The notes under the pieces: generated by a model | What the model was told of the DNA's origin: nothing | The model's input: only the letters and a program-made list of their open reading frames with translations | Databases searched by the model: none | Source: an uncultured Lachnospiraceae bacterium | Lineage (GTDB): Bacteria; Bacillota; Clostridia; Lachnospirales; Lachnospiraceae | Length of the DNA: 64,000 nt | Assembly: GCA_946534145.1 (NCBI GenBank) | Contig: CAMNCH010000001.1 | Location: 32,089 to 96,088 of the forward strand | Reading direction: 5' to 3' | Made by a program: the position numbers and the translations under genes | Shown: positions 5,836 through 42,179 of the stretch, in pieces | Position numbering within the stretch: position 1 is the stretch's first letter | Layout of the letters: the number at the start of each line of letters is the position of its first letter

Positions 5836-5862
5836 TCCTTTCAGGGTTTAAGTAAAATACAC

Positions 5863-5903
5863 GGAGGATGTTGCAACATTGTTTGGCGGCATCCTCCTTT
5901 TTT
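5863..5903 (+). terminator. Intra-operon hairpin/terminator after the BMP gene
   Basis: GGAGGATGTTGC ... GCGGCATCCTCC followed by TTTTTT. Confidence 0.7.
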
Positions 5904-5918
5904 CCAGAAGAGGTATGT

Positions 5919-7469
5919 ATGAGCGATTATGTAATTGAGATGCTGAACATCACCAAAAGATTTCCCGGTATTGTAGCCAATGACAATATCACCCTGCAGC
6001 TTAAAAAAGGTGAGGTTCATGCTCTGCTGGGGGAGAACGGCGCAGGCAAGTCTACGCTTATGAGCGTTTTATTCGGACTTTACCAGCCGGAAGAAGGATG
6101 TATTAAGAAAAACGGTGAAGTGGTCAAGATTAACGACCCCAATGATGCCAATGCGCTTCATATCGGTATGGTTCACCAGCATTTTAAGTTAGTCGAGTGT
6201 TTTTCCGTTCTCGACAATATTATTCTGGGCGTTGAGCCCAACAAGATGGGCTTTCTTCAGAAAAAAGAAGCCCGTGCGAAAGTACTTGAATTAAGCGAAA
6301 AATACGGGCTTAAGGTAGATCCCGATGCCCTTATCGAAGATATATCGGTAGGTATGCAGCAGCGTGTAGAGATTTTAAAGATGCTTTACCGCGAGAATGA
6401 AATTCTTATTTTCGACGAACCTACCGCAGTTTTGACTCCTCAGGAAATCGACGAACTCATGGAAATCATGAGAGGCTTCAAGGCTGAGGGCAAATCCATT
6501 CTTTTTATCACACACAAATTAAACGAAATCATGGCAGTTGCAGACCGTTGTACCGTACTTCGTAAGGGTAAATACATCGGTACCGTTAACGTTGCCGATA
6601 CCACCAAAGAAGAACTTTCCAAGATGATGGTAGGCCGTAACGTTAACTTCAAGGTAGACAAATGCGACTGTAAGCCCGGCGAAGTTGTATTTAAGGCAGA
6701 ACACGTTACCGTACCTTCCAAGCTTCACAAGAAGAATGCGGTCAATGACGTTTCTTTGGAAGTTCGCGCAGGCGAGATAGTATGTCTTGCGGGTATCGAA
6801 GGCAACGGCCAGACCGAGTTTGTACAGGGTATCACCGGTCTTACCAAGATGTCTGCCGGCCGTATCGAGCTCCTGGGCAAGGACATTACCAATGCCAGCA
6901 TTCGTGAAAAATCCATTATGGGTATCAGCCACATTCCCGAAGACAGACACAAACATGGACTTGTGCTTGACTACTCCTTGGAACAGAACTTGGTGCTTCA
7001 GCAGTACTGGGAGCCCCAGTTCCAGCACCACGGCTTTATTAAACAGCAGGCTGTAAGAGAGTACGCTGAGAAGCTTATTGAACAGTTCGACGTTCGAAGC
7101 GGACAGGGCCCCATCACCACAGCCCGCAGCATGTCAGGCGGTAACCAGCAGAAAGCCATTATCGCCCGCGAAATCAGCAAAGATCCCAAGCTTTTGGTGG
7201 CTGTTCAGCCTACCAGAGGTCTGGATGTAGGTGCTATAGAATACATTCACAAACAGTTAGTCAAAGAAAGAGACGAAGGCAAAGCAGTCCTTCTTATTTC
7301 TCTTGAACTTGACGAAGTTATGAATGTCAGCGACAGAATACTTGTTATGTATGAAGGCGAAATAGTGGGAGAATTCGATCCCAAGACCGTTACGGTTCAG
7401 GAGCTTGGTCTTTACATGGCCGGCGCCAAGAGACAGGACGGCAAAACCGGCAGGAAGGAGGAAGCTTAA
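5919..7469 (+). CDS. Nucleoside/sugar ABC transporter ATP-binding protein (tandem NBD, NupA-like)
   Basis: GENGAGKST Walker A, FDEPT, second half MSGGNQQK and QPTRGLD. RBS GAGG supports ATG 5919. Confidence 0.93.
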   Translation: MSDYVIEMLNITKRFPGIVANDNITLQLKKGEVHALLGENGAGKSTLMSVLFGLYQPEEGCIKKNGEVVKINDPNDANALHIGMVHQHFKLVECFSVLDNIILGVEPNKMGFLQKKEARAKVLELSEKYGLKVDPDALIEDISVGMQQRVEILKMLYRENEILIFDEPTAVLTPQEIDELMEIMRGFKAEGKSILFITHKLNEIMAVADRCTVLRKGKYIGTVNVADTTKEELSKMMVGRNVNFKVDKCDCKPGEVVFKAEHVTVPSKLHKKNAVNDVSLEVRAGEIVCLAGIEGNGQTEFVQGITGLTKMSAGRIELLGKDITNASIREKSIMGISHIPEDRHKHGLVLDYSLEQNLVLQQYWEPQFQHHGFIKQQAVREYAEKLIEQFDVRSGQGPITTARSMSGGNQQKAIIAREISKDPKLLVAVQPTRGLDVGAIEYIHKQLVKERDEGKAVLLISLELDEVMNVSDRILVMYEGEIVGEFDPKTVTVQELGLYMAGAKRQDGKTGRKEEA

Positions 7470-27684: not shown

Positions 27685-28359
27685 ATGCACAAGATTTTAT
27701 TGGTAGAAGATGATGAAGGAATAGCAGAGGGTATTGTTAAGGTTGCATCCCAGTGGAATCTTGAGGTAAGACCCGTTAAGGATTTCAGAAACGTAATGGG
27801 AGAGTTTGCCGAGTACAATCCTCAGCTGGTGCTCCTTGATATTTCTTTGCCCGCTTTCGACGGATATTACTGGTGTACTCAGATAAGAGCCCAGTCCAAG
27901 GTTCCGATTATCTTTATCAGTTCTACAGCTGAGAATATGAATATAGTTATGGCCATGAACATGGGAGCCGATGACTTTATTGCGAAGCCCTTTGACGGCA
28001 ACGTGCTTGTTGCCAAGATTCAGGCACTTTTACGCCGCACCTATGATTTCGGTGAGTCTGTGCCCGTAATGGAGCATAAGGGCGCTATTCTTAACCTCGG
28101 CGACAATTCCCTTACATACGAAGGACAGAAGATTGATCTAAGCGGCAATGAGTTTAAGATTCTTTTGACATTGCTGAAAAATAAAGGCGTCGTAGTGAGC
28201 AGAGAGAAGCTTATGGAGGCTCTTTGGGAGACCGACAGCTTTGTGGACGAAAATACCCTTACGGTTAATGTTAACCGCCTTCGCAAGAAGCTTGACGCTG
28301 CCGGCCTTGAAGGCTTTATTACCACAAAATTCGGTGTGGGCTATATAGTGGAGACTTAA
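27685..28359 (+). CDS. OmpR-family response regulator, BceR/GraR-like
   Basis: LLVEDD, LLDISLPAFDGYYWC, AMNMGADDFIAKPF, TLTVNVNRLRKKL. Confidence 0.92.
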   Translation: MHKILLVEDDEGIAEGIVKVASQWNLEVRPVKDFRNVMGEFAEYNPQLVLLDISLPAFDGYYWCTQIRAQSKVPIIFISSTAENMNIVMAMNMGADDFIAKPFDGNVLVAKIQALLRRTYDFGESVPVMEHKGAILNLGDNSLTYEGQKIDLSGNEFKILLTLLKNKGVVVSREKLMEALWETDSFVDENTLTVNVNRLRKKLDAAGLEGFITTKFGVGYIVET

Positions 28360-28361
28360 GG

Positions 28362-29357
28362 ATGAGCAGATTTTCACGTTGGATTTTGAATCACAGATTC
28401 GGCATTTTAACATATCTTGGGGTAATGATAATCTTCGGAGTCATTTTTTATCTCTACGGACTTCCGCTCAAGGCTGTTATCTATCCCGCTGTTTTCAGCC
28501 TGGCATATGTAATTGTTCTTTTGATAATAGAAAGTGCCCGCAAACGTGCCCGGCACAAAAAACTTGCGGATGTGGCCAAACTCCCGGCGGTAAGCGTAGC
28601 CGAGCAGCTTCCGGTGCCTGTATCCCGGATGGAAGAAGACTATACCATCATTATCAATAACGTAATCAATGAGCTTTCGGAAGTGATTACTTCCTACGAA
28701 AAAAAGATGCGTGACACCACGGACTATTATTCCACCTGGGTTCATCAGATTAAGACTCCCATTGCATCCATGCGATTAAACCTTCAGGCCATGGACTCAG
28801 ACGATTCACGTAATCTGCTCAGGAATCTTCAGGCCATTGAAGGCTATGTTGACATGGTAATGTCCTATCTGCGCCTTCAGTCCGAGCACACCGACTACGT
28901 AATTCGCAAAGAAAACATCAAAGAACTTGTGGCCGCTACGGTTAAAAAGTTCAGACTTGATTTTATTGAGAAGAAATTAAGCTTTAAGATGGAAGTGGAA
29001 GACGCCTATGTTCTTACGGACAAAAAATGGGCACTTATAGTCATAGAGCAGATTCTTTCAAACAGTCTTAAATACACTCAGGAAGGATATATCCGTGTGG
29101 CCTTCAAAGAAGACGACAGCCTTCTTGTGATAGAAGACACGGGTATCGGTATTGATGCCACCAACCTTCCCCGCATCTTTGAGCGCGGCTACACCGGCTT
29201 TAACGGCCGTGGCGAGGCTCATTCAAGCGGTATAGGCTTATACCTTGTCAAGAGCATCTGCGACAACTTAAAGATTAATATAAGAGTGGAATCTCAGGAA
29301 AACGTGGGTACCAAGATGTACTTAACCTTCCCGAGAAATCTTGCTTTTTACGAGTAA
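28362..29357 (+). CDS. Intramembrane-sensing histidine kinase, BceS/GraS-like
   Basis: Two close TM helices with almost no extracellular loop; WVHQIKTP, NSLKYT, DTGIGI, FERGYTG, SGIGLY. Confidence 0.92.
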   Translation: MSRFSRWILNHRFGILTYLGVMIIFGVIFYLYGLPLKAVIYPAVFSLAYVIVLLIIESARKRARHKKLADVAKLPAVSVAEQLPVPVSRMEEDYTIIINNVINELSEVITSYEKKMRDTTDYYSTWVHQIKTPIASMRLNLQAMDSDDSRNLLRNLQAIEGYVDMVMSYLRLQSEHTDYVIRKENIKELVAATVKKFRLDFIEKKLSFKMEVEDAYVLTDKKWALIVIEQILSNSLKYTQEGYIRVAFKEDDSLLVIEDTGIGIDATNLPRIFERGYTGFNGRGEAHSSGIGLYLVKSICDNLKINIRVESQENVGTKMYLTFPRNLAFYE

Positions 29358-29367
29358 AATGCTTGAT

Positions 29368-29454
29368 AAAGGTTCATTTCTTACGTTTGTGTAAGATTTG
29401 AACCTTTAATTGTAAGGAGAATCGATAGAACCGGATATGTGCCCTTGGTAGAAT
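29368..29454 (+). promoter_or_regulatory. BceR-type operator and extended -10 for the bceAB-like genes
   Basis: CTTAC-N6-GTAAG core (29380-95) inside a 15/17 inverted repeat; second TGTAAG 21 bp downstream (29411-16); TGGTAGAAT at 29446-54. Confidence 0.72.
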
Positions 29455-29482
29455 GGGTACATAAACAGGAGGTAAATTGAGA

Positions 29483-30241
29483 ATGAACATTTTAAAAGTA
29501 GATGATTTAAAGAAAACATACGTAAGCCGCCTCGGCACCAACAGAGTGGATGCGCTCAAGGGCGTTTTCTTTTCCGTTGAGGAAGGCGAATACGTGGCTA
29601 TAATGGGTGAGTCCGGTTCCGGTAAGACCACACTTCTTAATATTCTTGCCGCACTCGACAAGCCCACCGGCGGTTCCGTATTCTTAAGAGGTAAAAACGT
29701 TGTGGATATCAAAGAAAGCGACATGGCGGTATTCAGACGGGACAATCTGGGATACGTGTTCCAGGACTTTAACCTTATAGATTCTTTTTCCATAAGAGAT
29801 AACATTTTCCTGCCCCTGGTACTGCGAGGTGAGAAGCACAAGGAAATGGAAGCGAAGCTTGCACCCATAGCCAAACAGCTCGGTATTTCGGAACTTCTTG
29901 ACAAATACCCTTACGAAGTATCCGGCGGGCAGAAGCAGAGAGCGGCAGTGGCAAGAGCACTTATTACCGACCCTCAGCTTCTTCTTGCGGATGAGCCTAC
30001 CGGTGCCCTTGATTCCAAGTCAACAGACGAACTTCTGGATGTATTTGAGACCATTAACAAGACTGGTCAGACCATTCTTATGGTTACTCACTCCACCAAG
30101 GCAGCAAGCCATGCGAAACGCGTTCTTTTTATTAAGGACGGTGTTGTGTTCCATGAACTTTACAGGGGAGAAAAGAACTTTGAGGAGATGTACAAGGCCA
30201 TTTCCGACACTCTGACCCTTCTTTCCCAGGGAGGTAAGTAA
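29483..30241 (+). CDS. ABC transporter ATP-binding protein, BceA-like
   Basis: GESGSGKTT, VSGGQKQR, LADEPTGALD, VTH; AGGAGG RBS. Confidence 0.94.
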   Translation: MNILKVDDLKKTYVSRLGTNRVDALKGVFFSVEEGEYVAIMGESGSGKTTLLNILAALDKPTGGSVFLRGKNVVDIKESDMAVFRRDNLGYVFQDFNLIDSFSIRDNIFLPLVLRGEKHKEMEAKLAPIAKQLGISELLDKYPYEVSGGQKQRAAVARALITDPQLLLADEPTGALDSKSTDELLDVFETINKTGQTILMVTHSTKAASHAKRVLFIKDGVVFHELYRGEKNFEEMYKAISDTLTLLSQGGK

Positions 30242-30242
30242 T

Positions 30243-32210
30243 ATGAGCGCAGGATTATTCACAAGACTTGCGGCAGACGGCATTAAGAAAAATAAGAAGC
30301 TCTACATACCCTACATTATTTCCCTTGCCGGAATGGTAGCCATTTCCTACGTGCTTTATTATCTTACGGAAGCTCCTGCCATTACGAGGATGAGAGGCGC
30401 TTCGGCCCTTTGGATGGTAATGTCCCTCGGTAAGGTGGTTATGGTGGTATTCAGCTGTCTGTTCCTTCTTTATACAAACTCGTTTCTTGCCAAAAGAAGA
30501 AACTTTGAGTTCGCCCTTTACAATATCTTAGGCATGAACAAAAGAAACGTTGTAAGAATCCTTCTCGGAGAAACCGTTATGGTGGGTTCCATGGGACTTA
30601 TCATCGGTTTTGCGGCAGGCATTCTTTTGTCAAAGCTTTTTGAACTGATTCTTGTAAAAATGTGCAATTATCCGGCAGATTACAGCTTTTATCTTTCGGT
30701 TAAGTCCATAATAATGCTTGTTGTCTTTTACGTTGCCATTATGCTGATTCTTTTTATATTCTCGGCAGGCAAGATTATCATCAATAAGCCTATCGAACTT
30801 TTAAGAAGCACGAACGCGGGAGAGAAGGAGCCAAAGACCAACATTTTGTTTGCCCTCGGTGGCATCGGACTTTTGGGAGGGGCTTATTATATGGCGGTTA
30901 CCATTGAAGACCCCCTTTCATCTTTAAACATTTTCTTTACCGCTGTACTCATGGTTATTGTCGGTACGTATTTGCTTTTCCAGGCAGGCAGTGTTTTCAT
31001 CTGTAAGCTCCTTAAGAAAAATAAAAAGTACTACTACGATCCCAGACATTTCGTGCCCGTATCAGGTATGATTTACCGTATGAAGAGAAACGGTGCGGGA
31101 CTTGCCACCATATGTATTCTCGCTACCATGGTTATGGTAATGCTTGGCTCCACGGGTTCTTTGTTCTTTGGCCTGAATTCGTCCATTGATAAGATGTATC
31201 CCTACGATATCAATATAAACTCCGTCGGAATCAGTAACTACGAAGAGTGGAAGAGTTTAAGCCCCGATATGCTTAATAAGGACATTCTTGAAGTGTTTGA
31301 TTATATAAAACCTGAGGATGTGCACTTCGAGCGTTATGAGAATTTTGTTGCTCTTAAAAACGAAAACGGTGCCGACTTTATGAAAGAAGACCAGAACATC
31401 CTGCCCGGGGACGTGGCCAACTATATGATGGTTGAAGTACAGTCTCTTGCCGATTACAATAAAAACACCGGCAGTAATCTTTCTTTGGAAGATGACGAAG
31501 TGTTTTTTCTGTCCGCCACTTCGAATTTTAAAAAGGATGTGCTGATATTAAGCGGTCTTGAGTATAAGGTTAAGGGCAAAGAAGAAGGATTTAACTTCGG
31601 TACGGACGTTGTAAACAGCTACAGAATCGTGGTTAAGGATATTGATAAGCTGGACAGGTATGCGGCAAGTGAAAACGCTCAGAAACATTTATACGCCACA
31701 TGGGGCTTTGATACCCGCAAGGACCAGGATGATGACATATCCAGAGCACATGCGTTGGAAGAGCGTATTCATGATGTATACATCAGATCCAAGGCAGAAG
31801 AAAGACTTGAAACCACCGATATGTATGCAAGCCTCTTACTTTTGGGAATATTCTTAAGCATAGTATTTATGGGTGCGTGCGCATTCATCATATACTTTAA
31901 GCAGCTTACCGAAGGCTATGAAGATGCCGGAGCCTACAAGACCATGAGAAGCGTGGGCATGACCAAAAAAGAAATCAAGAAGGGCATCAATTCCCAGACC
32001 CTTATCACTTTCTTTTCACCCTTGTTCATGGCGGCGGTTCACCTTGCTTTCTCGGCACCTTTGGTACACAAGCTTTTGATTATCTTAGGCTTATCCGATA
32101 TTCTGGTATTTACTTTGTCGTACATTATATGCTTTGCAGCCTTTGCTGTTTTTTACCTTTTTGTGTACAAAAAGACCGTAAAAGCATATGTTGAAATTGT
32201 TTCTGCTTAA
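30243..32210 (+). CDS. FtsX-like permease, BceB-like (peptide antibiotic resistance)
   Basis: LLYTNSFLAKRRNFEFALYNILGM, large extracellular domain, YFKQLTEG, QTLITFFSP. Confidence 0.92.
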   Translation: MSAGLFTRLAADGIKKNKKLYIPYIISLAGMVAISYVLYYLTEAPAITRMRGASALWMVMSLGKVVMVVFSCLFLLYTNSFLAKRRNFEFALYNILGMNKRNVVRILLGETVMVGSMGLIIGFAAGILLSKLFELILVKMCNYPADYSFYLSVKSIIMLVVFYVAIMLILFIFSAGKIIINKPIELLRSTNAGEKEPKTNILFALGGIGLLGGAYYMAVTIEDPLSSLNIFFTAVLMVIVGTYLLFQAGSVFICKLLKKNKKYYYDPRHFVPVSGMIYRMKRNGAGLATICILATMVMVMLGSTGSLFFGLNSSIDKMYPYDININSVGISNYEEWKSLSPDMLNKDILEVFDYIKPEDVHFERYENFVALKNENGADFMKEDQNILPGDVANYMMVEVQSLADYNKNTGSNLSLEDDEVFFLSATSNFKKDVLILSGLEYKVKGKEEGFNFGTDVVNSYRIVVKDIDKLDRYAASENAQKHLYATWGFDTRKDQDDDISRAHALEERIHDVYIRSKAEERLETTDMYASLLLLGIFLSIVFMGACAFIIYFKQLTEGYEDAGAYKTMRSVGMTKKEIKKGINSQTLITFFSPLFMAAVHLAFSAPLVHKLLIILGLSDILVFTLSYIICFAAFAVFYLFVYKKTVKAYVEIVSA

Positions 32211-32389: not shown

Positions 32390-32479
32390 ATTTGTATTTT
32401 TTTTGATTTAATAGTGTGATAAAATATATTTGTGTGTGGAATTTGTATACACATATACAGATTTTCAAAGGAGAATATT

Positions 32480-33031
32480 ATGAAACGGTTTTCTGTTAAG
32501 ACTGTCGTTGCCATCGGCATCGGCGCAGCATTGTTCTTTGTACTGGGACGTTTTGTATCCATTCCCAGCGGTATTCCGGATACGAACATTTCAATACAGT
32601 ACGGCGTACTTGCTTTTATTGCCGCTGTGTTTGGTCCCATTGCCGGATTCCTTGCGGGAATCATCGGACACTTCTTTATCGACTTTAGCTTTGGCTGGGG
32701 TGTCTGGTGGAGCTGGGTTATCGCATCCTCAATTTTTGGATGCATCATGGGCCTTGCCACTATGAAGATTGATATAGACAACGGCGAGTTTGCGTTAAAA
32801 GAAATCATTATTTTCAATGTTTCCCAGATTGTCGCACATCTTATTTCATGGGTAGGCGTTGCACCCGCACTTGATATTCTTTTCTACAAAGAGCCTGCCA
32901 ATAAGGTATTTATTCAGGGTCTTACAAGCGCCGGCATCAATATCCTTGCCACCGCCGTTGTGGGAACCTTACTGTGTGTTGCATACGCAGCCGCAAGACC
33001 CAAGAAAGACAGCTTAAAAGAAGAGCAGTAA
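32480..33031 (+). CDS. ECF transporter S component, UPF0397 family
   Basis: KTVVAIGIGAALF, IPSGIPDTNI, FGPIAG...GH...D, WWSW. AAGGAG RBS before ATG 32480; extended -10 TGATAAAAT at 32417-25. Confidence 0.88.
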   Translation: MKRFSVKTVVAIGIGAALFFVLGRFVSIPSGIPDTNISIQYGVLAFIAAVFGPIAGFLAGIIGHFFIDFSFGWGVWWSWVIASSIFGCIMGLATMKIDIDNGEFALKEIIIFNVSQIVAHLISWVGVAPALDILFYKEPANKVFIQGLTSAGINILATAVVGTLLCVAYAAARPKKDSLKEEQ

Positions 33032-33038
33032 TACATCC

Positions 33039-33067
33039 TGCGGCGGGTTTACCCCCGCCGCATTTTT
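33039..33067 (+). terminator. Intra-operon terminator-like hairpin after the S component
   Basis: TGCGGCGGG-N6-CCCGCCGCA followed by TTTTT. Confidence 0.72.
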
Positions 33068-33084
33068 AAAGGAGATCCTTTCTT

Positions 33085-34791
33085 TTGGACACCATACTGA
33101 AATTTGAAAATTTCGGCTTTAAATATGATGCGCAGACCTCACCCACTCTTTACGATATTAACTTTTCGGTTAAAAAAGGTGAGAAGGTGCTTATAGCAGG
33201 ACCTTCCGGATGCGGTAAATCCACACTTGTACACTGTATAAACGGGCTTGTTCCTTTCTCCTACAAGGGAAAGATAACAGGGTCGCTTTCTTTGTTTGGA
33301 CGTGAGACCAGAGATATGAGCCTTTTTGAAATCTCCAAACATGTGGGCACCGTTTTGCAGGATTCCGATGCTCAGTTCGTGGGACTTACCGTTGCGGAAG
33401 ATATTGCTTTTGCCCTTGAAAACGACTGCGTGGGTGAGCCCGAGCTTCATGACAGGGTCATGGACGTGGCCAAACTTGTGAATATAGATGAGTTTATGGG
33501 GCACGCTCCCACGGAACTTTCCGGAGGTCAGAAACAGAGGGTTTCCCTCGGCGGCGTATTGGTGGATGATGTGGAGCTTCTAATCTTTGACGAGCCCCTT
33601 GCCAATCTCGACCCCGCCACAGGCAAACAGGCCATTGAGCTTATTGACGAACTGCAAAAGAAAACCGGCGTTGCAGTCATAATCGTTGAACACAGAGTCG
33701 AGGACGTTCTTCACAGAAGTGTGGACAGAATGATACTCATGGACAAAGGCCGTATCGTGGCCGATGCTACGCCCGACGAACTCTTAAGCACCAATGCTCT
33801 TATAGAGAAGGGTGTACGTGAGCCCTTGTATCTTTCCGCCATGAAATATGCAGGCATCGAGGTAACCCCGTCGCTGAGACCCGGCAGTATCGATACAGTG
33901 GTAATCGGTGAAGCCGAAGCCGGCAAACTTCGTGATTGGTACGAGCATGCGCCTGCAGACAGAAAGCCTGCGGAGGCGGAAGATATACTGGATGTGAGGC
34001 ATCTTTCTTTTTCCTATGACGGCACGAGAAAAGCTCTTAACGATATTTCTATAAAGATTAAATCGGGAGAGATGCTTGCCATAGTGGGCACCAACGGCGC
34101 CGGCAAGTCCACATTCTCCAAGGTTTTGTGCGGATTTGAGCATGAAGATGACGGGGAGATTTTCTTTGAAGGCGGAGACTTTAAAGGCTTCTCCATTAAG
34201 GAGCGCGCCGACCGAATCGGCTATGTGATGCAGAACCCCAATCAGATGATTTCCAAGATAATGATTTTTGATGAGGTGGCCCTGGGACTTCGCTCAAGAG
34301 GCGTGTCCGAGGAAGACATTAAGACCCGTGTGGAAGATACTCTTAAAATCTGCGGCCTCTGGCCCTTCAGAAACTGGCCGGTATCGGCCCTCAGTTACGG
34401 TCAGAAAAAGCGTGTGACCATAGCAGCCATTATGGTGCTGGAACCCAAGGTTATTATTCTTGACGAGCCTACAGCCGGTCAGGACTACCGCCATTATACG
34501 GAGATTATGGAGTTTCTCACGGAACTTAACAAGCGGGGCATAACCGTCATCATGATTACCCATGATATGCATCTGATGCTTGAATATGCGGACAGGGCGG
34601 TTGCTTTTTCCGAGGGCAGAATCATTAAGGATGCAGACTCCGCGGCCATTCTTACGGACTCCGGTATTATTGAACGGGCAAGCCTCAAGGAAACCTCTCT
34701 TTATGAACTGTGCAAAAAGGCGGGCATTCCCGACGGCACAGACTTCGTGAGAAGATTTATTGCCTATGAAAGAGAGGTGGTAAGACAGTGA
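33085..34791 (+). CDS. ECF transporter fused double ATPase (A-A')
   Basis: GPSGCGKST and GTNGAGKST, LSGGQKQR and LSYGQKKR, FDEPLANLD. TTG start after AAGGAG. Confidence 0.92.
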   Translation: MDTILKFENFGFKYDAQTSPTLYDINFSVKKGEKVLIAGPSGCGKSTLVHCINGLVPFSYKGKITGSLSLFGRETRDMSLFEISKHVGTVLQDSDAQFVGLTVAEDIAFALENDCVGEPELHDRVMDVAKLVNIDEFMGHAPTELSGGQKQRVSLGGVLVDDVELLIFDEPLANLDPATGKQAIELIDELQKKTGVAVIIVEHRVEDVLHRSVDRMILMDKGRIVADATPDELLSTNALIEKGVREPLYLSAMKYAGIEVTPSLRPGSIDTVVIGEAEAGKLRDWYEHAPADRKPAEAEDILDVRHLSFSYDGTRKALNDISIKIKSGEMLAIVGTNGAGKSTFSKVLCGFEHEDDGEIFFEGGDFKGFSIKERADRIGYVMQNPNQMISKIMIFDEVALGLRSRGVSEEDIKTRVEDTLKICGLWPFRNWPVSALSYGQKKRVTIAAIMVLEPKVIILDEPTAGQDYRHYTEIMEFLTELNKRGITVIMITHDMHLMLEYADRAVAFSEGRIIKDADSAAILTDSGIIERASLKETSLYELCKKAGIPDGTDFVRRFIAYEREVVRQ

Positions 34792-35615
34792 ACAACCTCT
34801 TTAACTATATAGACAAGGAATCTCCGGTTCACAGACTGACGGGAGCCACCAAATTTGTGTGCCTGCTTCTGTGGAACTTTGCGGCAATGTATACCTACGA
34901 CACCAGATATCTGTGTGTCATGGCGGTGTTAAGCTTTGTGCTGTTTGCGGTATCGAAGATTAAGTTAAAAGAAGTATCCTTTATGCTTGGATTTACCGCC
35001 GTATTCGTGCTCATCAACAATGTTTTGGTGTATGTTTTTTCGCCCCAACACGGCACCGAAATATACGGAACCTGTACCTATCTGTTCGGGCTTTCCGGCA
35101 AGTACGCGCCCACGGCGGAGCAGCTTTTTTATCACTTGAATTATTTCCTTAAGTATCTGGCATCCATACCGTCGGTTATTTTGTTTGTCAGCACCACCAA
35201 TCCCAGCGAATTTGCGGCTTCCCTCAATAAACTGGGTGTGAAATATACTGTGGCTTATTCCGTGGCTCTTGCCTTAAGATACATTCCGGATGTGCAAAAA
35301 GAATACGACGAAATATCCAAGGCTCAGCAGGCCCGCGGCATCGAAATGAGCAAAAAAGCACCTCTTATGAAAAGAATAAAGAGTGCTGCATCTATTTTGA
35401 TTCCGCTGATTCTCTCCAGTATGGACAGGGTAGAGATAGTCTCAAATGCCATGGAACTGCGTTCTTTTGGCAAAAACAAAAAGCGTACCTGGTACATGGG
35501 CAGACCCTTTAAGTGGACTGATATTGCGGCTATGATTTTTTGTGCTTTCCTTGTAATAGTTGCGGTCTTTTTAAATTTTAAAAATAATGGCAGATTTTTT
35601 AACCCATTTATTTAG
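34788..35615 (+). CDS. ECF transporter T component
   Basis: LALRYIPDV...I..AQQARG, LIPL, MELRSF. GTGA overlap. Confidence 0.92.
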   Translation: MNNLFNYIDKESPVHRLTGATKFVCLLLWNFAAMYTYDTRYLCVMAVLSFVLFAVSKIKLKEVSFMLGFTAVFVLINNVLVYVFSPQHGTEIYGTCTYLFGLSGKYAPTAEQLFYHLNYFLKYLASIPSVILFVSTTNPSEFAASLNKLGVKYTVAYSVALALRYIPDVQKEYDEISKAQQARGIEMSKKAPLMKRIKSAASILIPLILSSMDRVEIVSNAMELRSFGKNKKRTWYMGRPFKWTDIAAMIFCAFLVIVAVFLNFKNNGRFFNPFI

Positions 35616-35856: not shown

Positions 35857-36327
35857 ATGTTTAAAAGTATTGACGAAATCCATAAGTTCTCCTATGAAGA
35901 CTGTGTCCTTACGGGCATGGAATGGGCAGAAGACGGCCTTTTATTTGAGGTTGAAGCCCTCATAGTAAAAGAGAACAATTCACAGAATTCCAACTTTACA
36001 GAAAGCTACGCCGGACCTGCCGTCATCAAGCTTGTCGACGGTCGCATAACAGATGTTATCAAAACCGGCTTTAAGTATTACGACGCCGACGGACAGCTGT
36101 TAAAGACCGTTCCGGACGAAGCCGAAAGCCCCCTTGTGTGGGAATCCCTCTTTAAGACATTCCCCGGCAATTACCTTCCTTCTTTGGAGGCTGTTGACGG
36201 CGGCTACATCATAGAAATAGAAATGTCCGAAGAAGACGGCACCCAGGGCAACAGCTACCTCTTAAAACTTGAAGCCTCAAGCGTCATCGTCACCTGGGAC
36301 AAATATTTAAACCGCGTAGGAAGATAA
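35857..36327 (+). CDS. Acidic hypothetical protein, 156 aa
   Basis: Clean ORF with protein-like composition, followed by a terminator; no motif I can assign. Confidence 0.8.
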   Translation: MFKSIDEIHKFSYEDCVLTGMEWAEDGLLFEVEALIVKENNSQNSNFTESYAGPAVIKLVDGRITDVIKTGFKYYDADGQLLKTVPDEAESPLVWESLFKTFPGNYLPSLEAVDGGYIIEIEMSEEDGTQGNSYLLKLEASSVIVTWDKYLNRVGR

Positions 36328-36345
36328 CTTAATACAGTTTATATG

Positions 36346-36370
36346 AGGATGCAGAAATGCATCCTTTTTT
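36346..36370 (+). terminator. Intrinsic terminator
   Basis: AGGATGCA-GAAA-TGCATCCT followed by TTTTT. Confidence 0.85.
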
Positions 36371-36398: not shown

Positions 36399-36538
36399 GA
36401 CAAAGGGCTTAAAACATACTTTGCGGACCTTTTCGACTCGTCGGCACTTAGCGGGTGTCCCTCAAGCCGCTTACGTGTCCGTTACGACAAAGAACAGAGT
36501 GCGAACGTGTCCGGGAAGTATGTTTTAAGCCCTTTGTC
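36399..36538. repeat. 140-bp palindromic element with perfect 23-bp terminal inverted repeats (MITE/REPIN-like)
   Basis: GACAAAGGGCTTAAAACATACTT (36399-421) and its exact reverse complement (36516-538); the interior also pairs into one long bulged rod. Confidence 0.8.
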
Positions 36539-36560: not shown

Positions 36561-36614
36561 TTCACATTTTTTACTTTTCCCGTACACAATTTGAACACAT
36601 TTACCCTGTAATCT
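36561..36614 (+). promoter_or_regulatory. 11-bp-phased direct repeats (OmpR/PhoB-type site) and -10 upstream of the VTC operon
   Basis: TTCACA 36561, TACACA 36583, AACACA 36594; TAATCT at 36609-14; no good -35. Confidence 0.6.
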
Positions 36615-36638: not shown

Positions 36639-37409
36639 ATGGCAGGAAACATTTTTGAACGGGTGGAAATCAAATACTTACTGACTAAAGAACAGTATGA
36701 TGCTTTGAACATTAAACTTGAGCCTTACATGCAGGTTGATGAATACGGGCTTAACACTATATCAAGCATCTATTACGACACCAAACATTACGATGTAATA
36801 AGAACTTCCATGGAGAAGCCGGCGTACAAAGAAAAACTGAGGTTAAGAGCCTACGGAAGCATTAAGGACACTTCCACGGTGTATCTGGAATTAAAGAAAA
36901 AATACGACGGAATCGTATACAAAAGAAGAGTGGCGCTGCCCATAAAAGTTGCGGCGGACTATCTTGAGAAGGGAATTTACCCCAAGGATTACGATTCACA
37001 GATACTAAGGGAAATCGACTACTTTATAAAACTTAACCGTCCGTCCACTGGCACACTGATAGCCTGTGAAAGAGTGGCGATGTTCGGAAAAGAAGACAAG
37101 GAATTGAGGATTACTTTTGACAGTAACATAAGAACTTCTTTTGACAAGACCAATCTGCAGACGGAAAAAGAAGAGAAGCCGGTGATTGACAAAAACCGGT
37201 ACCTGATGGAGATAAAGGTACCGGGAACCATGCCGCTCTGGCTTACGGCAGCGTTAAATGAACTTAAGATATATCCCCATTCTTTCTCAAAATACGGGGA
37301 AGCGATGACGATTTATTCGAAACAGGGTATGCGGGGAGTTTCTGAGATTAAGGAGGAAAAAACACATGCTCACAAGTATACTGGAAAATTCAACTACAAC
37401 TACTCTTAG
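36639..37409 (+). CDS. VTC (polyphosphate polymerase, CYTH-like tunnel) domain protein
   Basis: FERVEIKYLL, ISSIYYDT, KEKLRLRAYG, YLELKKK...VYKRR, RITFD, LMEIK, FSKY. Confidence 0.9.
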   Translation: MAGNIFERVEIKYLLTKEQYDALNIKLEPYMQVDEYGLNTISSIYYDTKHYDVIRTSMEKPAYKEKLRLRAYGSIKDTSTVYLELKKKYDGIVYKRRVALPIKVAADYLEKGIYPKDYDSQILREIDYFIKLNRPSTGTLIACERVAMFGKEDKELRITFDSNIRTSFDKTNLQTEKEEKPVIDKNRYLMEIKVPGTMPLWLTAALNELKIYPHSFSKYGEAMTIYSKQGMRGVSEIKEEKTHAHKYTGKFNYNYS

Positions 37410-38046
37410 TTACGGACAAATGGCGGCCTGCACCGCGGTTTCTTTGGTGATAGGGCTTGTAATAGCACTTTGCTATATTTATTGCAGCGAGAAGCATTCA
37501 AAAAGCTTTGTAATTACCCTTGCGGCTCTGCCGGTTTTAGTACAGGCGGTTATCATGATGGTAAACGGAAACCTGGGAACGGGAGTAGCCATTATGGGAG
37601 CCTTCAGCCTTATCAGGTTCAGAAGCGTGGCGGGAAGCGCAAGAGAAATCGGAGCCGTTTTCTTTGCCATGACTGTGGGGCTGGCAACAGGCATGGGCTA
37701 TATTGGATTTGCGGTTATTGTTACGGCCGTTGTGGCGATTTTGTTTATTATTCTTTCCAAGATCGGCTTCGGAGAGAGCAAAGCGGCGGACAAGCACTTA
37801 AAGATAACCATTCCCGAAAATTTAAATTACAGCGGTCTTTTTGACGACCTTTTCTCGGAGTATTTAAGCGAAGTAATTTTGGAGAAGGTTAAGACCACCA
37901 ACCTGGGTTCCATGTTTGAGGTGTCTTACCTTGTGAAATTTAAAAATGATAATACCGAGAAAGACTTTATCGACGCGGTAAGAGTCAGAAACGGAAATCT
38001 TCCCATAGTATGTGCAAAAGTATCGGCGGGAGCCGAAGAGTTATAG
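37366..38046 (+). CDS. DUF4956-family membrane protein
   Basis: VIMMVNGNLGTGVAIMGAFSLIRFRSVAGSAREI, AVGLATGMG, C-terminal VKTTNLGS...Y; AAGGAGG RBS. Confidence 0.9.
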   Translation: MLTSILENSTTTTLSYGQMAACTAVSLVIGLVIALCYIYCSEKHSKSFVITLAALPVLVQAVIMMVNGNLGTGVAIMGAFSLIRFRSVAGSAREIGAVFFAMTVGLATGMGYIGFAVIVTAVVAILFIILSKIGFGESKAADKHLKITIPENLNYSGLFDDLFSEYLSEVILEKVKTTNLGSMFEVSYLVKFKNDNTEKDFIDAVRVRNGNLPIVCAKVSAGAEEL

Positions 38047-38055
38047 GAGGTGCCT

Positions 38056-39501
38056 ATGATGAAAAAGAAAACCTTAAGTCTCATGCTGGCGGCAGCATTG
38101 GTGCTGGCATCGGGATGCTCATATAAGAATGATGCGGAATCGGTTTCAATTTCAATAACCGACGACAATTCAAACGGAACGGTTACCGTAACCGGCAACT
38201 CCGACAAAACGGTTACCGTTACAAAAACAGTTACGGCAGACATGGCAGAGAAAGCCACCAAGGTTAACGACGGCGAAACCATCACCAAGGCCGGTACATA
38301 TATTCTGGAGGGAGAATATACCCATACGGTTACCATAGACGCGGACAAAGAAGCCGACGTGATACTCATACTTAACGGAGCAACCGTGACTTCCGAGGAC
38401 GGACCTGCCATCAGTGCGGTAAAGTGTAACAGCCTCATAATAAGTGTCGCAGCCGGTACAACCAATACCCTCACGGATGCAAAAGAATATGCCGACACAT
38501 CCGACAGCGCACCCACAGGGGCACTTTACTCCAAGAACGACCTCACCATAGAAGGCGAAGGAACCCTCACAGTAAACGGAAATGCCAAACACGGCATAGT
38601 TTCAAAAGACAACCTTTACATAAACGGCGCCATTATCGAGGTTACAGCCGTTAAGGACGGTCTCCACGCGGGAGATTCACTTGAGATAAACGGCGGCACC
38701 ATCAACATTAAGGATTCCAACGAAGGAATGGAAGCCGAGAGTATTACGGTTAACAACGGTATCGTTGTTGTTAATGCCAAAGATGACGGAATCAATGCAA
38801 CATCGGATGAGATAACACCTGTTATTACGTTTAACGGCGGAACCGTAACCGTTAATTCCGCAGGCGACGGTGTTGATTCAAACGGCAATATCGTGCTTAA
38901 CGGAGGCTTCGTATACGTAAGCGGCGCCACCAACGACGGAAACGCGGCTATGGACTATGACGGTACATTTACAGCTGACGGCGGAACATTGATTTCCTCG
39001 GGAATGTCGGGAATGTACCAGTCAATTTCAAAAGAATCGGGAAATAAAGTTATAGACTACATCGTCACCGAGACAGTTAAGGCCGGCACGACGGTTTCTT
39101 TGTACGACGGAGATACACTTATCTGCAGTACCGAGATAATTAAGGATGCCAATTCAATACTGATTACAAGCGATGCCCTTGAAAACGGCAAAGAATATAC
39201 ACTGAAACTCGGAGACAAGTCCGTATCCGTTACCGCGGGAGAGAGCACTAATCAGGGCTTTGGCGGCTTCGGAGGAAAGGGCGGTTTCGGCCCCGGCGGT
39301 AATAAAGGCGGATTTAACGGCGAACGCCCCTCCGAAGATTTTGACAAAAGGGAAGCCCCCGAGGGTTCTCAGGGAGAACCACCCGAAGGCTTTAGCAGGG
39401 AAACACCCGAAGGATTTGGCGGGAATTTCCCGGGAGACGACAATGGTAATTTCGGAGGAGAACCCCCGATGGATTTCGAAGGAGAAACCCTCAGCAATTA
39501 A
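38056..39501 (+). CDS. Cthe_2159-family (DUF4353) beta-helix lipoprotein with Gly/Phe/Pro-rich tail
   Basis: Lipobox LASGC; ITKAGTYILEG, LILNG, GALYSKNDLTI.G.GTLTV, KDGLHA, DDGINA, GDGVDSNG, GNAAMDYDG. Confidence 0.88.
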   Translation: MMKKKTLSLMLAAALVLASGCSYKNDAESVSISITDDNSNGTVTVTGNSDKTVTVTKTVTADMAEKATKVNDGETITKAGTYILEGEYTHTVTIDADKEADVILILNGATVTSEDGPAISAVKCNSLIISVAAGTTNTLTDAKEYADTSDSAPTGALYSKNDLTIEGEGTLTVNGNAKHGIVSKDNLYINGAIIEVTAVKDGLHAGDSLEINGGTINIKDSNEGMEAESITVNNGIVVVNAKDDGINATSDEITPVITFNGGTVTVNSAGDGVDSNGNIVLNGGFVYVSGATNDGNAAMDYDGTFTADGGTLISSGMSGMYQSISKESGNKVIDYIVTETVKAGTTVSLYDGDTLICSTEIIKDANSILITSDALENGKEYTLKLGDKSVSVTAGESTNQGFGGFGGKGGFGPGGNKGGFNGERPSEDFDKREAPEGSQGEPPEGFSRETPEGFGGNFPGDDNGNFGGEPPMDFEGETLSN

Positions 39502-40577
39502 GCTGCTTTTTCAGAATCCGCTTTAGTAACGGAACTTTCTTCAATTCTCCTATAGTTTTTCGATGCTCTTCCCGTAACAATGATGAAGAGACCCGAGAGT
39601 ACAAGGGGCAATGCAAAACTTACAAGTCTGCACAGTACGATGGCACTTCCGATCATTCCTTCCGAGAATACCTTCTTAAAGAGCAGACCGAAGCCACCCT
39701 CCATTGCCCCGGAGCTTCCGGGAAGAGGAATGCAGGAGACGGATGTAAACAACAGTCCCTGAAGGGTCATCATTTCAAAAAGGTTTCTTTCGCTTAAGCC
39801 AAAGGAACGGTAGCAAAAGTAAGTGATGGAATGGTAAGCCGCAAACTGTACAAGGGAAATAAGAATTATCTTAACCAGTACACCCTTGTTTGCTTTTAAA
39901 CGGTTTGCGCTTACTCTGTATTCAGCAAAAGTTTTTAAAAGCTTGGCCTTGGTGCCGGGCTTTTTTGAAAATATAGAAACAATCTTAATAATCACTCCGG
40001 CGATTACCTTAACGGCTTTTTTGGAAAACATAATAAGCAAAAGGCCGGTAAGGAGCAAAAAGTTAATCAAAAATCCCACCACAAGCACCCAGCCGATGCT
40101 GATACCCTCAAAAAGATTCAGGGGGGATACCAAAGAGACTATAAGTCCCATAAATGCGATGGTGATGGATGCCACTTCATAGCCGATTAACTCAAGCAAA
40201 AGGGAGAAAGAAGCATGAGAGACCTTAATGTTGTCTCTGTGCATCGCATAAATCTGAGCGGGCTGTCCGCCGGAAGCGGAAGGGGTTATTGAACTGAAAA
40301 AGAAGCCTGTATAAGCGTATTTAAGGGAATTAAAAAGGCTTGTTTTATAACCCGTGAGATTTAAGCCGATTCTTATGTTTAAGGCTTCGCCCAAAGAAAA
40401 CATAAGCATACAAATAACCGCAGGAACTAAGAACCAGGGGTTGATGCTTGTAAGAATCGACATGACGGAATCAAGACCGAATTCTTTGGATATTATATAA
40501 ATTGTCAGGGCGGCGAGAGACACCATAAGGGCCACGCCTATGTAGACAGATTTCTTGTTACAGGGTTTCAAATACAT
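39498..40577 (-). CDS. LPG-synthase-TM/MprF-flippase-like membrane protein (HexF-like)
   Basis: FFSSITPSASGGQPAQIYAM, IPLPGSSGAMEGGF, CRLVSF; many TM segments. Confidence 0.88.
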   Translation of the reverse strand: MYLKPCNKKSVYIGVALMVSLAALTIYIISKEFGLDSVMSILTSINPWFLVPAVICMLMFSLGEALNIRIGLNLTGYKTSLFNSLKYAYTGFFFSSITPSASGGQPAQIYAMHRDNIKVSHASFSLLLELIGYEVASITIAFMGLIVSLVSPLNLFEGISIGWVLVVGFLINFLLLTGLLLIMFSKKAVKVIAGVIIKIVSIFSKKPGTKAKLLKTFAEYRVSANRLKANKGVLVKIILISLVQFAAYHSITYFCYRSFGLSERNLFEMMTLQGLLFTSVSCIPLPGSSGAMEGGFGLLFKKVFSEGMIGSAIVLCRLVSFALPLVLSGLFIIVTGRASKNYRRIEESSVTKADSEKAA

Positions 40578-41121
40578 ATCCTCTTTCTTTTAATATGGGG
40601 AGAGCGCTCTTTAAAGCCTCAATTGTGCGGGAAGGAGCGCAGTTTCTGCCGCGGCCGTCGTGAAGACATATTACGGCGCCGGGGAAAACACGGTCCAGAA
40701 TCTTCTTGCAGATAGTTGAGGAAGTGGTGCTGGCGCGCCAGTCCTCGGCCATAACGTCCCATTTGATGAGATGCATCCTTCTTTTGCCTGCCTCATAGCG
40801 GGAGAAGCGTCTGGTCATGCCCCACGGGGGACGATAGTAGTGGGGCTTCACTCCGAGAGCCTCAAGGGTCTTCAAAGCCTCGTCCATATCCTCGGTAAAG
40901 GTTTTGCGGGTCATAAGCCAGGAACTGATGTGGCGGTTGGCATGAAGGCATACCTCGTGGCCGCGTCTGATTTCTTCCCTGATGATATCGGGATTTTCTT
41001 TGGCAAATTCACCTACCACAAAGAAGGTGGCCTTGATGTTAAGTTCGTCCAAAAGATTTAAGAGTGTTTCGGTATATTCGGCGCTGGGGCCGTCGTCAAA
41101 GGTTAAAAATAGTTTCTTCAT
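40558..41121 (-). CDS. Small cytoplasmic polysaccharide deacetylase (HexD-like)
   Basis: LTFDDGP, LHANRH, YYRPPWG, WDVMAEDW, CLHDG; no signal peptide. Confidence 0.9.
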   Translation of the reverse strand: MKKLFLTFDDGPSAEYTETLLNLLDELNIKATFFVVGEFAKENPDIIREEIRRGHEVCLHANRHISSWLMTRKTFTEDMDEALKTLEALGVKPHYYRPPWGMTRRFSRYEAGKRRMHLIKWDVMAEDWRASTTSSTICKKILDRVFPGAVICLHDGRGRNCAPSRTIEALKSALPILKERGYVFETL

Positions 41122-41123
41122 AA

Positions 41124-42179
41124 TTATGCTGCCTCAATATAATCTATGGGGTTGGAACTTTCGAAACCTTCGGAAAGCACCCGCATGTTTTCTTTGATTT
41201 TGTTGATTCTTTCTGTGTTATGTATAAATTCGATAAGGTCTGCCGCAGAGAAATCGTCTCTGTTTGAAATCACTACGCCGAGGCCCTTTCTTTTGATGAA
41301 ACGTGAGTTACCGAGCTCCTGCTCGAGGGTGGGCTCGATGACGTAGAGAGGAGTGCGGGCCTTAATGGCTTCAAAAGTGGTGATTCCGCCGGGCTTGGTG
41401 ATGATTACGTCGGATTCTTTGAGATAATCGCTGACTCTGTCGGTGAAGCCGATAGCGTTGATGTTTTTGTATTTTGCGATGATTTCGTTTCTTAATTCTT
41501 CGTTCTTGCCGCAGATGATGGTGGCGTTTACTCCGGGCTCATTGTTTAATGCGGTAAGTATCTTTTCCTGACAGGGAATAAGACCGAGACCGCCACCCAT
41601 AATGAGAACGTATGCTTCTTTTTTCACGGGTTCCGTGTGATTGTTAAAAGAAGCCGATACGGGAATGCCGCATACATGAATGTTCTCGGGTCTGATACCG
41701 TTGTCTATAAGCTCTCGCTTGCAGATTCTGTCGCCTACGAAATATTTGTCCACGTGTTTGGATATCCAGTCCTTGTGGATGGTGATATCGGTAATATATA
41801 CATAGAAAGGAATCTTCACGTGATGCTTCTTTTTAAAAGAAGAGAAGTACTGTACGCACATGGGAAGATCCGCCACCACCAAATCGGGACTGTAAGTGCA
41901 CATAAGTTTTTCCATGTGGTTGTAGATCACACGCTTAAAAGGCACACAGTTTAAGTGGTTGGAAAACTTGGCAAGCTTGTTGTATGCGTCGTAGAATTTG
42001 AAAACGCATAATTCAAAGCCCTTATATATTAACTTGGAAGCTCTGGGAAAACAGTAGTCGCAGAAATCGATTACCGTTACGTTTGCGTCCTGATATTTTG
42101 TTTTGATTTCTTCTTTGATTGCTTCGGCACATTTTACATGCCCCATTCCGAAGCGTCCCGTAAGTATTAATACGTTCAT
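41124..42179 (-). CDS. MGDG-synthase-like GT28 glycosyltransferase (HexS/UgtP-like)
   Basis: FGMGHVKCA, ITDITIHKDW, CGIPV, IMGGGLG, GFTDRV, TKPGGITTFEA, QELGNS. Confidence 0.9.
   Translation of the reverse strand: MNVLILTGRFGMGHVKCAEAIKEEIKTKYQDANVTVIDFCDYCFPRASKLIYKGFELCVFKFYDAYNKLAKFSNHLNCVPFKRVIYNHMEKLMCTYSPDLVVADLPMCVQYFSSFKKKHHVKIPFYVYITDITIHKDWISKHVDKYFVGDRICKRELIDNGIRPENIHVCGIPVSASFNNHTEPVKKEAYVLIMGGGLGLIPCQEKILTALNNEPGVNATIICGKNEELRNEIIAKYKNINAIGFTDRVSDYLKESDVIITKPGGITTFEAIKARTPLYVIEPTLEQELGNSRFIKRKGLGVVISNRDDFSAADLIEFIHNTERINKIKENMRVLSEGFESSNPIDYIEAA

Follow-up and report, generated by a model that had tools for sequence, protein, structure and literature searches.

Polyphosphate in bacteria is taken to come from the kinases PPK1 and PPK2, and polymerases of the Vtc4 type are, to our knowledge, considered eukaryotic. 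Here we describe three same-strand open reading frames (ORFs) at positions 36639–39501 of a 64,000-nt stretch of the genome of a rumen Lachnospiraceae bacterium (the whole stretch is called the window below; the assembly is 92% complete), which encode, in this order, an enzyme with a VTC domain, a membrane protein of the DUF4956 family and a lipoprotein of the Cthe_2159 family. An earlier note, made from the sequence of the window, had proposed the three genes as a candidate system for polyphosphate synthesis and export. We report that the three genes form a conserved module in bacteria, that the enzyme retains the catalytic residues of yeast Vtc4, and that repeats of a type bound by response regulators precede the operon and many related ones; from these observations we develop a tentative model of a polyphosphate module of the cell envelope and weigh it against its alternatives.

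The eukaryotic VTC complex (yeast Vtc4 with Vtc3 or Vtc2 and Vtc1; 3G3Q, 3G3R, 7YTJ, 8I6V) is among the closest known systems. In Vtc4, mutation of eight residues (K200, R264, R266, K281, Y359, R361, S457, and K458) lowers cellular polyphosphate, E426 is a Mn2+ ligand, and K458 is the one position lost in the inactive paralogues Vtc2 and Vtc3 (bioRxiv 10.1101/2023.01.27.525886). An R264A/R266A/E426N triple mutant has been used as a catalytically impaired form (PMC9911596). The enzyme in the window shares with this complex its Pfam family, the triphosphate-binding residues, the Mn2+ ligand and the closest structure, and it is likewise tied to a membrane component. In contrast to the eukaryotic complex, the bacterial form has no SPX domain, no fused DUF202 helices and no Vtc1 subunit, and its membrane partner is encoded by a separate gene and is an unrelated DUF4956 protein with five predicted helices and an ACT-like domain.

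In Gram-positive bacteria, cotH, a polyphosphate-polymerase gene and a DUF4956 gene have been described as an accessory gene set of pel loci (Whitfield et al., 2020, PMC7112168). In Streptococcus intermedius (SIR_1592–1594), deletion of the DUF4956 or the CotH gene changed the level of Pel and aggregation (PMC12345266), and a report on Clostridium perfringens lists the same neighbors without interpreting them (PMC2879425). The VTC-DUF4956-CotH form is therefore already in print, and the triad with Cthe_2159 is a widespread variant of it. The window operon resembles the pel-locus set in having a VTC and DUF4956 core with an exported third partner. However, its third gene encodes a Cthe_2159-family lipoprotein rather than CotH, there are no pel genes nearby, and its VTC protein belongs to a separate deep clade (100/100 support for the split). 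No paper was found on the Cthe_2159 (beta-helix) form of the module, so the earlier note's remark that the triad lacks a demonstrated function is in line with the searchable literature.

The three proteins of the operon

The first gene (36639–37409, plus strand) encodes a protein of 256 aa that matches the VTC family (Pfam PF09359) over residues 8–224 (E 3e-39; 135.4 bits against a curated cut-off of 23) and consists of this domain only, with no membrane helix. The motifs on which the earlier note had based its reading of a catalytic-type tunnel enzyme (KY, KLRLR, KKK, KRR, R.TFD, EIK, and SKY) are all found in it. Residue equivalences were taken from a profile of 43 bacterial VTC homologues aligned to yeast Vtc4 (3G3Q/5IIQ), in which K12 corresponds to Vtc4 K200, R68 and R70 to R264 and R266, K86 to K281, Y143 to Y359, R145 to R361, R157 to R373, the putative Mn2+ ligand E191 to E426, and S217 and K218 to S457 and K458. 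All of these are invariant or at least 90% conserved among the 43 homologues, a paralogue of only 20% identity included. An AlphaFold2 model of the protein (predicted local distance difference test, pLDDT, 89.6) was compared with the PDB by Foldseek, and the 13 best matches were all structures of Vtc4, Vtc3 or Vtc2 (best 3G3R, E 6e-13, template modeling (TM) score 0.70), while matches to CYTH proteins (YgiF, class IV adenylate cyclases, and thiamine triphosphatase) were weaker (E 1e-7 to 1e-4, TM ~0.5). The protein is, as well supported as sequence and fold allow, a cytoplasmic Vtc4-type triphosphate-tunnel enzyme and a candidate polyphosphate polymerase; the earlier reading holds down to the catalytic residues, the K458 equivalent among them.

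The second gene (37366–38046, plus strand) shares 44 nt with the VTC gene and has its ribosome-binding site, AAGGAGG, inside the VTC coding sequence. Its product of 226 aa matches PF16316 (E 1e-18; 68 bits against a cut-off of 30.6). The AlphaFold2 model (pLDDT 81) has helices at residues 16–40, 46–65, 70–87, 92–109, and 113–133, followed by a beta-alpha domain at 143–218. Because of the positive-inside rule, the N-terminus is predicted to lie outside and the C-terminus inside, which would put R84 and R86 at the cytoplasmic end of helix 3. These two residues (in the motif FSLxRFRS), together with R206 and G210, are invariant in a family whose mean column identity is 54%, a 21%-identical paralogue included. 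The predicted placement of R84 and R86 is compatible with a phosphate-binding entrance, although a pore is not thereby shown. In its predicted order of about five membrane helices and then a cytoplasmic ACT-like domain, DUF4956 resembles the MgtC/SapB family (PF02308), but we know of no MgtC protein that partners a VTC enzyme. The DUF4956 protein of S. intermedius was described by its authors in MgtC-like terms (PMC12345266).

The third gene (38056–39501, plus strand) encodes the lipoprotein, which passes the cut-off of PF14262 by a wide margin (E 1e-49; 169 bits against 25.8) and over residues 22–280 is matched by the crystallized Cthe_2159 of Clostridium (Acetivibrio) thermocellum (PDB 4PEU/4PHB, E 5e-22). 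The ORF extends from a GTG at 38050 (483 aa), and the ATG at 38056, which stands 5 nt past an AGGAGG that overlaps the DUF4956 stop codon, is likely the true start. Numbered from the GTG, the protein has a lipobox Cys, a beta-helix at about 77–300, a further beta-rich region, and a tail rich in Gly, Pro, Glu, and Phe at about 401–483. Its signal MMKKKTLSLMLAAALVLASG-C fits the PROSITE-type lipobox [LIVMFWSTAG]2-[LIVMFYSTAGCQ]-[AGS]-C, and a lipobox is present in 79 of 94 homologues, which have a median acidic-to-basic residue ratio of 3.1. The mature protein is very acidic (71 Asp and Glu against 28 Lys and Arg; isoelectric point ~4.1) and is predicted to be anchored at the outer surface of the membrane, so that the lipobox pattern, the PF14262 and 4PEU matches and the low isoelectric point bear out the acidic surface beta-helix lipoprotein of the earlier note. 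The crystallized protein is like it in the beta-helix domain, and a GC lipobox-like motif stands near both N-termini, but the crystallized chain has 313 residues, whereas the window protein has 481 aa, with an extra C-terminal region and the low-complexity tail. The family's only biochemistry is for the C. thermocellum protein, which binds cellulose and polygalacturonate; Ca2+ sites are likewise known for that protein only (PMC6712302). A literature search on Cthe_2157, Cthe_2158, and Cthe_2160 found nothing.

No plus-strand terminator was found interrupting the three genes, and their layout agrees exactly in position with the overlapping or abutting genes that the earlier note had described.

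Linkage across genomes, a second partner and the relation to PPK

The three genes are linked far beyond chance. A search with the VTC protein gave 80 loci, all of different species and 44–75% identical to it; a DUF4956 gene lies directly downstream of VTC in 76, and two of the remaining four are truncated at the end of a contig. A Cthe_2159-family gene adjoins in 54 of the 80, which places it downstream on the same strand in 46, downstream on the opposite strand in one, and upstream in seven. The closest related loci are from metagenome-assembled genomes (MAGs) with 73–75% identity and from strain YSD2013. Over all sampled sets, DUF4956 follows VTC in 76 of 80, 20 of 20, and 21 of 22 loci, and between the VTC stop and the DUF4956 start the median gap is -6 nt (116 gene pairs). 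The reciprocal sample of 39 loci, found with the 4PEU sequence, gave the same picture from the other side: VTC-DUF4956 adjoins in 22 of them, which belong to Bacillota, Chloroflexota, and one Bacteroidota MAG. The Cthe_2159 gene stands downstream of, upstream of or divergent from VTC-DUF4956, and the linked loci include Faecalibacterium, Syntrophomonas, and groundwater Chloroflexota, which are non-fibrolytic settings. The window lipoprotein is the only Cthe_2159 member in its genome, which, with the short distance between VTC and DUF4956, further supports the linkage. The triad first seen in a single locus is in this way a conserved module. Natural fusions of VTC with DUF4956 or of CotH with Cthe_2159 were not found in about 140 loci examined. 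That the namesake of the family stands in such an operon was not supported; Acetivibrio thermocellus itself is absent from the 4PEU-side sample, and neither a VTC nor a DUF4956 gene lies within 6 kb of the gene for the closest relative found, a protein of Acetivibrio straminisolvens (86% identical).

The same genome holds a second VTC-DUF4956 pair, on contig C34 (9143–11975 of the fetched locus L003, minus strand), in the order CotH-DUF4956-VTC and inside a glycan cluster with genes for a GDP-mannose dehydratase, a GDP-fucose synthase, a GT2 glycosyltransferase, an acyltransferase, and a sugar transferase. Its VTC protein is 20% and its DUF4956 protein 21% identical to those of the window. One genome thus has both module types, linked to Cthe_2159 and to CotH. 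A related-locus search with the C34 paralogue gave no close relatives; relatives were obtained through a genome search of genera, which placed them in 67 of the 201 Lachnospiraceae genera. A CotH gene adjoins in at least 15 of 20 fetched loci of the C34 type, and a Cthe_2159 gene in one, while CotH adjoins VTC-DUF4956 in none of the 80 loci of the window clade, nor in the window operon. In a tree of 120 VTC proteins, a single clade of 21 (100/100 support), set off by a very long branch, holds the CotH-linked ones, and the type of partner changes only twice. The proteins for the tree were gathered by similarity to each paralogue, so that the split is partly built in; the association with a partner within each clade is not. 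The only partner swap seen in the CotH-linked clade is at the related locus L166, where a short Cthe_2159-family gene (5664–6533) stands directly upstream of VTC-DUF4956 in place of CotH. On the outside, the bacterial VTC-DUF4956 pair therefore appears to have one or the other of two partners, Cthe_2159 or CotH. Anaerobic rumen fungi have uniquely acquired both Cthe_2159 and CotH domains (PMC6712302), which may be coincidence.

The earlier note had asked whether the genome lacks ppk1 and had called the synthesis of polyphosphate PPK-independent. In the 92%-complete assembly there is no match to PPK1 (PF02503), PPK2 (PF03976) or PPX/GppA (PF02541), an absence that could reflect the missing 8%, and PstS-type phosphate-binding proteins are unmatched in the same assembly. 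Unless the assembly gap accounts for it, this is an unusually reduced phosphate toolkit. For this genome the absence of PPK matches agrees with the earlier note, but "PPK-independent" does not extend to the family: VTC occurs in 152 and PPK1 in 171 of 201 Lachnospiraceae genera, and 131 of the 152 VTC-positive genera have PPK1 (21 do not), compared with 40 of the VTC-negative ones (nine do not). The two are not associated (Fisher test, odds ratio 1.4, p = 0.49). On this ground we rejected the idea that VTC generally stands in for PPK1, and the independence of the two argues for a distinct role.

Promoter repeats and the surroundings of the operon

The operon appears to have its own promoter. 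A terminator-like hairpin at 36345–36366 (plus strand; 9-bp stem, then a T-run) directly follows an ORF of 156 aa (35857–36327, no Pfam match), and it is reasonably clear from the sequence that it closes this preceding gene and marks the upstream boundary of the operon. The candidate promoter region (36561–36614, plus strand), within which a promoter-like site spans 36561–36590, has four hexamers, TTCACA, TACTTT, TACACA, and AACACA, at an exact spacing of 11 bp (36561–36599), followed by the -10-like TAATCT at 36609–36614. The block with the 11-bp period is nearly invariant in the three nearest species (L004–L006), although the proteins are only 73–75% identical. The VTC gene is preceded by a WWCACA-N5-WWCACA pattern in 8 of 102 related loci, where 0.0016 would be expected per 200 nt, and the only two other sites in this genome are both inside genes. 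We infer that the window repeats are a candidate site for a response regulator of the OmpR/PhoB type. Their reading as a Pho box was not supported, given that both other genomic sites are intragenic and that no promoter of a PstS-type gene was found for comparison.

Many related operons have a different repeat at a fixed position. An exact TTTARG-N5-TTTARG stands about 74 nt before the VTC start in 22 of the 102 loci (38 with one position relaxed), against 0.0027 expected per 200 nt, and 23 of the 34 such sites in 2.55 Mb of locus sequence, both strands counted, are upstream of VTC. This pattern is the consensus published for the CiaR box of streptococci (PMC3091779, PMC8317062). The related VTC operons are like the CiaRH regulon promoters of streptococci (TTTAAG-N5-TTTAAG) in having a direct repeat at a fixed upstream distance, but the window operon has no TTTARG box and carries the WWCACA-type repeat instead. 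A gene for an OmpR-family response regulator stands beside the operon in 19 of the 22 TTTARG loci, usually right after DUF4956, and a histidine kinase gene follows it in both loci checked with Pfam (L117 and L111). Where the lipoprotein gene is divergent, the intergenic region that it has in common with the operon carries the repeat in both orientations. A dedicated two-component system with a defined DNA box is thus likely in many of the related operons, and this putative regulation of VTC operons by repeats and two-component systems is new in the present analysis. In its five-gene form (L117, 2324–7704; L111, 2278–7302; and 17 other loci, from Oscillospiraceae, Faecalibacterium, and others), the cluster consists of a Cthe_2159 gene divergent from genes for VTC, DUF4956, the OmpR-family regulator, and the histidine kinase.

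No two-component system adjoins the window operon, and the nearest one is at 27685–29357. It opens a group at 27685–32210 with an OmpR-family regulator, a short histidine kinase, an ATP-binding cassette (ABC) ATPase, and a 655-aa permease of FtsX-type appearance; the Pfam check covered the regulator and the kinase. In its gene content this group resembles a Bce-like module for sensing and detoxifying peptide antibiotics.

Other features surround the operon. Directly upstream of the 156-aa gene is an energy-coupling factor (ECF)-type transporter set (32432–35615), in which a fused double ATPase is accompanied by an S component of riboflavin type and a T component of CbiQ type. A palindrome of 140 nt (36399–36538) stands between the terminator of the preceding gene and the promoter of VTC. 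Its 37-nt arms are 86% complementary, its inner ~95 nt are repeated on at least eight other contigs of the genome at 86–99% identity, and it has no Rfam match; it resembles a small repeat dispersed in the genome, or else a mobile element of the non-autonomous kind. No riboswitch or other known RNA was matched in the 5′ region of the operon by Rfam. Downstream, convergent genes on the minus strand (39498–42179) encode a flippase-like LPG_synthase_TM protein, a polysaccharide deacetylase, and a glycosyltransferase like GT28/MGDG synthase, and the stop codons of the first of them and of the lipoprotein gene overlap by 4 nt. Their sequences suggest that they make a deacetylated aminosugar glycolipid. 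They were considered as members of the module and rejected, since their synteny is limited to the three closest relatives.

A possible polyphosphate module of the envelope and its alternatives

The reading that we prefer, although we hold it with a little less than even confidence, is that the three proteins form a polyphosphate module that spans the envelope from inside to outside. Inside, at the cytoplasmic side of the membrane, the soluble VTC enzyme would most likely build polyphosphate, or a short chain of phosphates, from the gamma-phosphate of ATP or of another nucleoside triphosphate. The translationally coupled DUF4956 protein, probably an oligomer, would hold the enzyme at the membrane and pass its product, or the phosphoryl energy of the product, outward. 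Outside, the acidic and probably Ca2+-loaded lipoprotein would receive or organize what arrives. That one pair of enzyme and membrane protein has two different extracytoplasmic partners, Cthe_2159 and CotH, argues that something crosses the membrane. The operon's own promoter, with a repeat that a response regulator may bind, and the two-component systems of its relatives make an inducible envelope response likelier than bulk storage of phosphate.

Several observations weigh against this model, and they are given here with the alternatives to which most of them lend weight. Two concern the module as a whole. To begin with, 26 of the 80 related loci have no Cthe_2159 neighbor, and of ten genes checked downstream of the 22 of them that have DUF4956, those with Pfam matches were mostly housekeeping genes. 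Moreover, our literature search found no paper with an assay of any bacterial VTC protein.

The alternative that survives best, and which we still regard as rather doubtful, is that polyphosphate remains within the cell and that the module acts in the inward direction or only as a regulator. DUF4956 would then be an MgtC-like anchor or regulator with an ACT-like ligand sensor, the lipoprotein would bind an external ligand (Ca2+, or an acidic or cell-wall polymer) and modulate the complex, and nothing would be exported. The MgtC-like character of the membrane domain fits this view; weak MgtC matches were obtained with 26 of 52 DUF4956 homologues, although the best (E 0.047) is far below the Pfam cut-off and the window protein has none. 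Foldseek matched only the C-terminal domain of DUF4956, weakly (E ~1e-2), to the ferredoxin-like folds of ACT, PII, and CutA, and an ACT/PII-like fold is typical of ligand sensing. Such an MgtC-like and ACT-like architecture is known from regulators and not from channels (PMC12345266), so that the role of a regulator or anchor fits DUF4956 equally well. Nothing marks DUF4956 as the membrane channel that the earlier note had proposed, and a basic pore is not apparent: the sole conserved basic residues of the membrane domain are R84 and R86, which lie where a helix ends, its Foldseek search gave no PDB match although the yeast VTC chains were in the library, and no relation to the yeast Vtc1/DUF202 channel is detectable. 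On the outside, Cthe_2159 is known only as a binding protein (PMC6712302), and the strong acidity of the lipoprotein makes direct binding of a polyanion implausible, so that polyphosphate could be held only through cation bridges. Yeast VTC is likewise regulated by a ligand-sensing domain, SPX (PMC9911596). Against a purely internal or regulatory module, PPK1 already supplies cytoplasmic polyphosphate in the great majority of VTC-positive relatives, the alternative partner CotH, an exported kinase fold, would need a phosphoryl donor outside the cell, and many loci already have a dedicated histidine kinase for sensing.

It is distinctly improbable, in our judgment, that the VTC protein is not a polymerase and acts instead as a tunnel phosphohydrolase (tripolyphosphatase, NTPase or polyphosphatase), or as a cyclase or transferase on another triphosphate, with DUF4956 in envelope or cation homeostasis. 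The tunnel fold is common to CYTH hydrolases and cyclases, and deletion of the VTC gene of S. intermedius produced no reported phenotype (PMC12345266). The first strand of the bacterial protein reads R-x-E-x-K, half of the CYTH metal motif ExExK, with a Glu (E10) where Vtc4 has T198, and this remnant implies that the chemistry may differ from that of Vtc4. However, Arg (R8) takes the place of the first Glu of ExExK, as R196 does in Vtc4, Vtc4 and its paralogues are much the nearest structures, and the residues on which the Vtc4 polymerase depends, K458 included, are conserved.

Finally, that the lipoprotein is merely a frequent neighbor, a plant-fiber-binding (cellulose or pectin) protein on the surface of rumen Clostridia that is functionally unconnected with VTC-DUF4956, is very unlikely: the binding of cellulose and polygalacturonate by crystallized Cthe_2159, the solitary position of its closest relative found, in A. 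straminisolvens, and the loci that lack the lipoprotein gene favor it, but the linkage holds over three phyla, three gene orders, and non-fibrolytic settings, divergent arrangements have one common intergenic region with repeats in both orientations, and the genome has no other Cthe_2159 member.

The model of an inside-to-outside polyphosphate module can be extended further, to a form that we think unlikely as a whole. In gut and rumen Firmicutes, and in some Chloroflexota and Bacteroidota, the system would be an inducible, PPK-independent polyphosphate synthase-exporter under two-component control, in which a Vtc4-like enzyme on an MgtC-like DUF4956 oligomer threads polyphosphate outward to two interchangeable receivers. 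A Ca2+-loaded Cthe_2159 protein would hold a layer of cations and polyphosphate at the surface, and in the paralogous system the CotH kinase would use polyphosphate as its phosphoryl donor where there is no ATP.

These questions are now directly testable, given a set of catalytic residues, a near-constant membrane partner with four invariant residues, two clade-specific outside partners, and a likely two-component system with its DNA box. The contexts described here suggest that the label "carbohydrate-binding", which many proteins of the Cthe_2159 family carry, may miss their real context. Should this module prove to make polyphosphate at the membrane, it would add a third route to this polymer in bacteria, with VTC present in about three-quarters of the Lachnospiraceae genera surveyed, and it would be the first candidate for a deliberate delivery of polyphosphate, or of phosphoryl energy, to the Gram-positive cell surface. 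It would then be relevant to the way in which gut bacteria handle cations, respond to envelope stress, and interact with their hosts.

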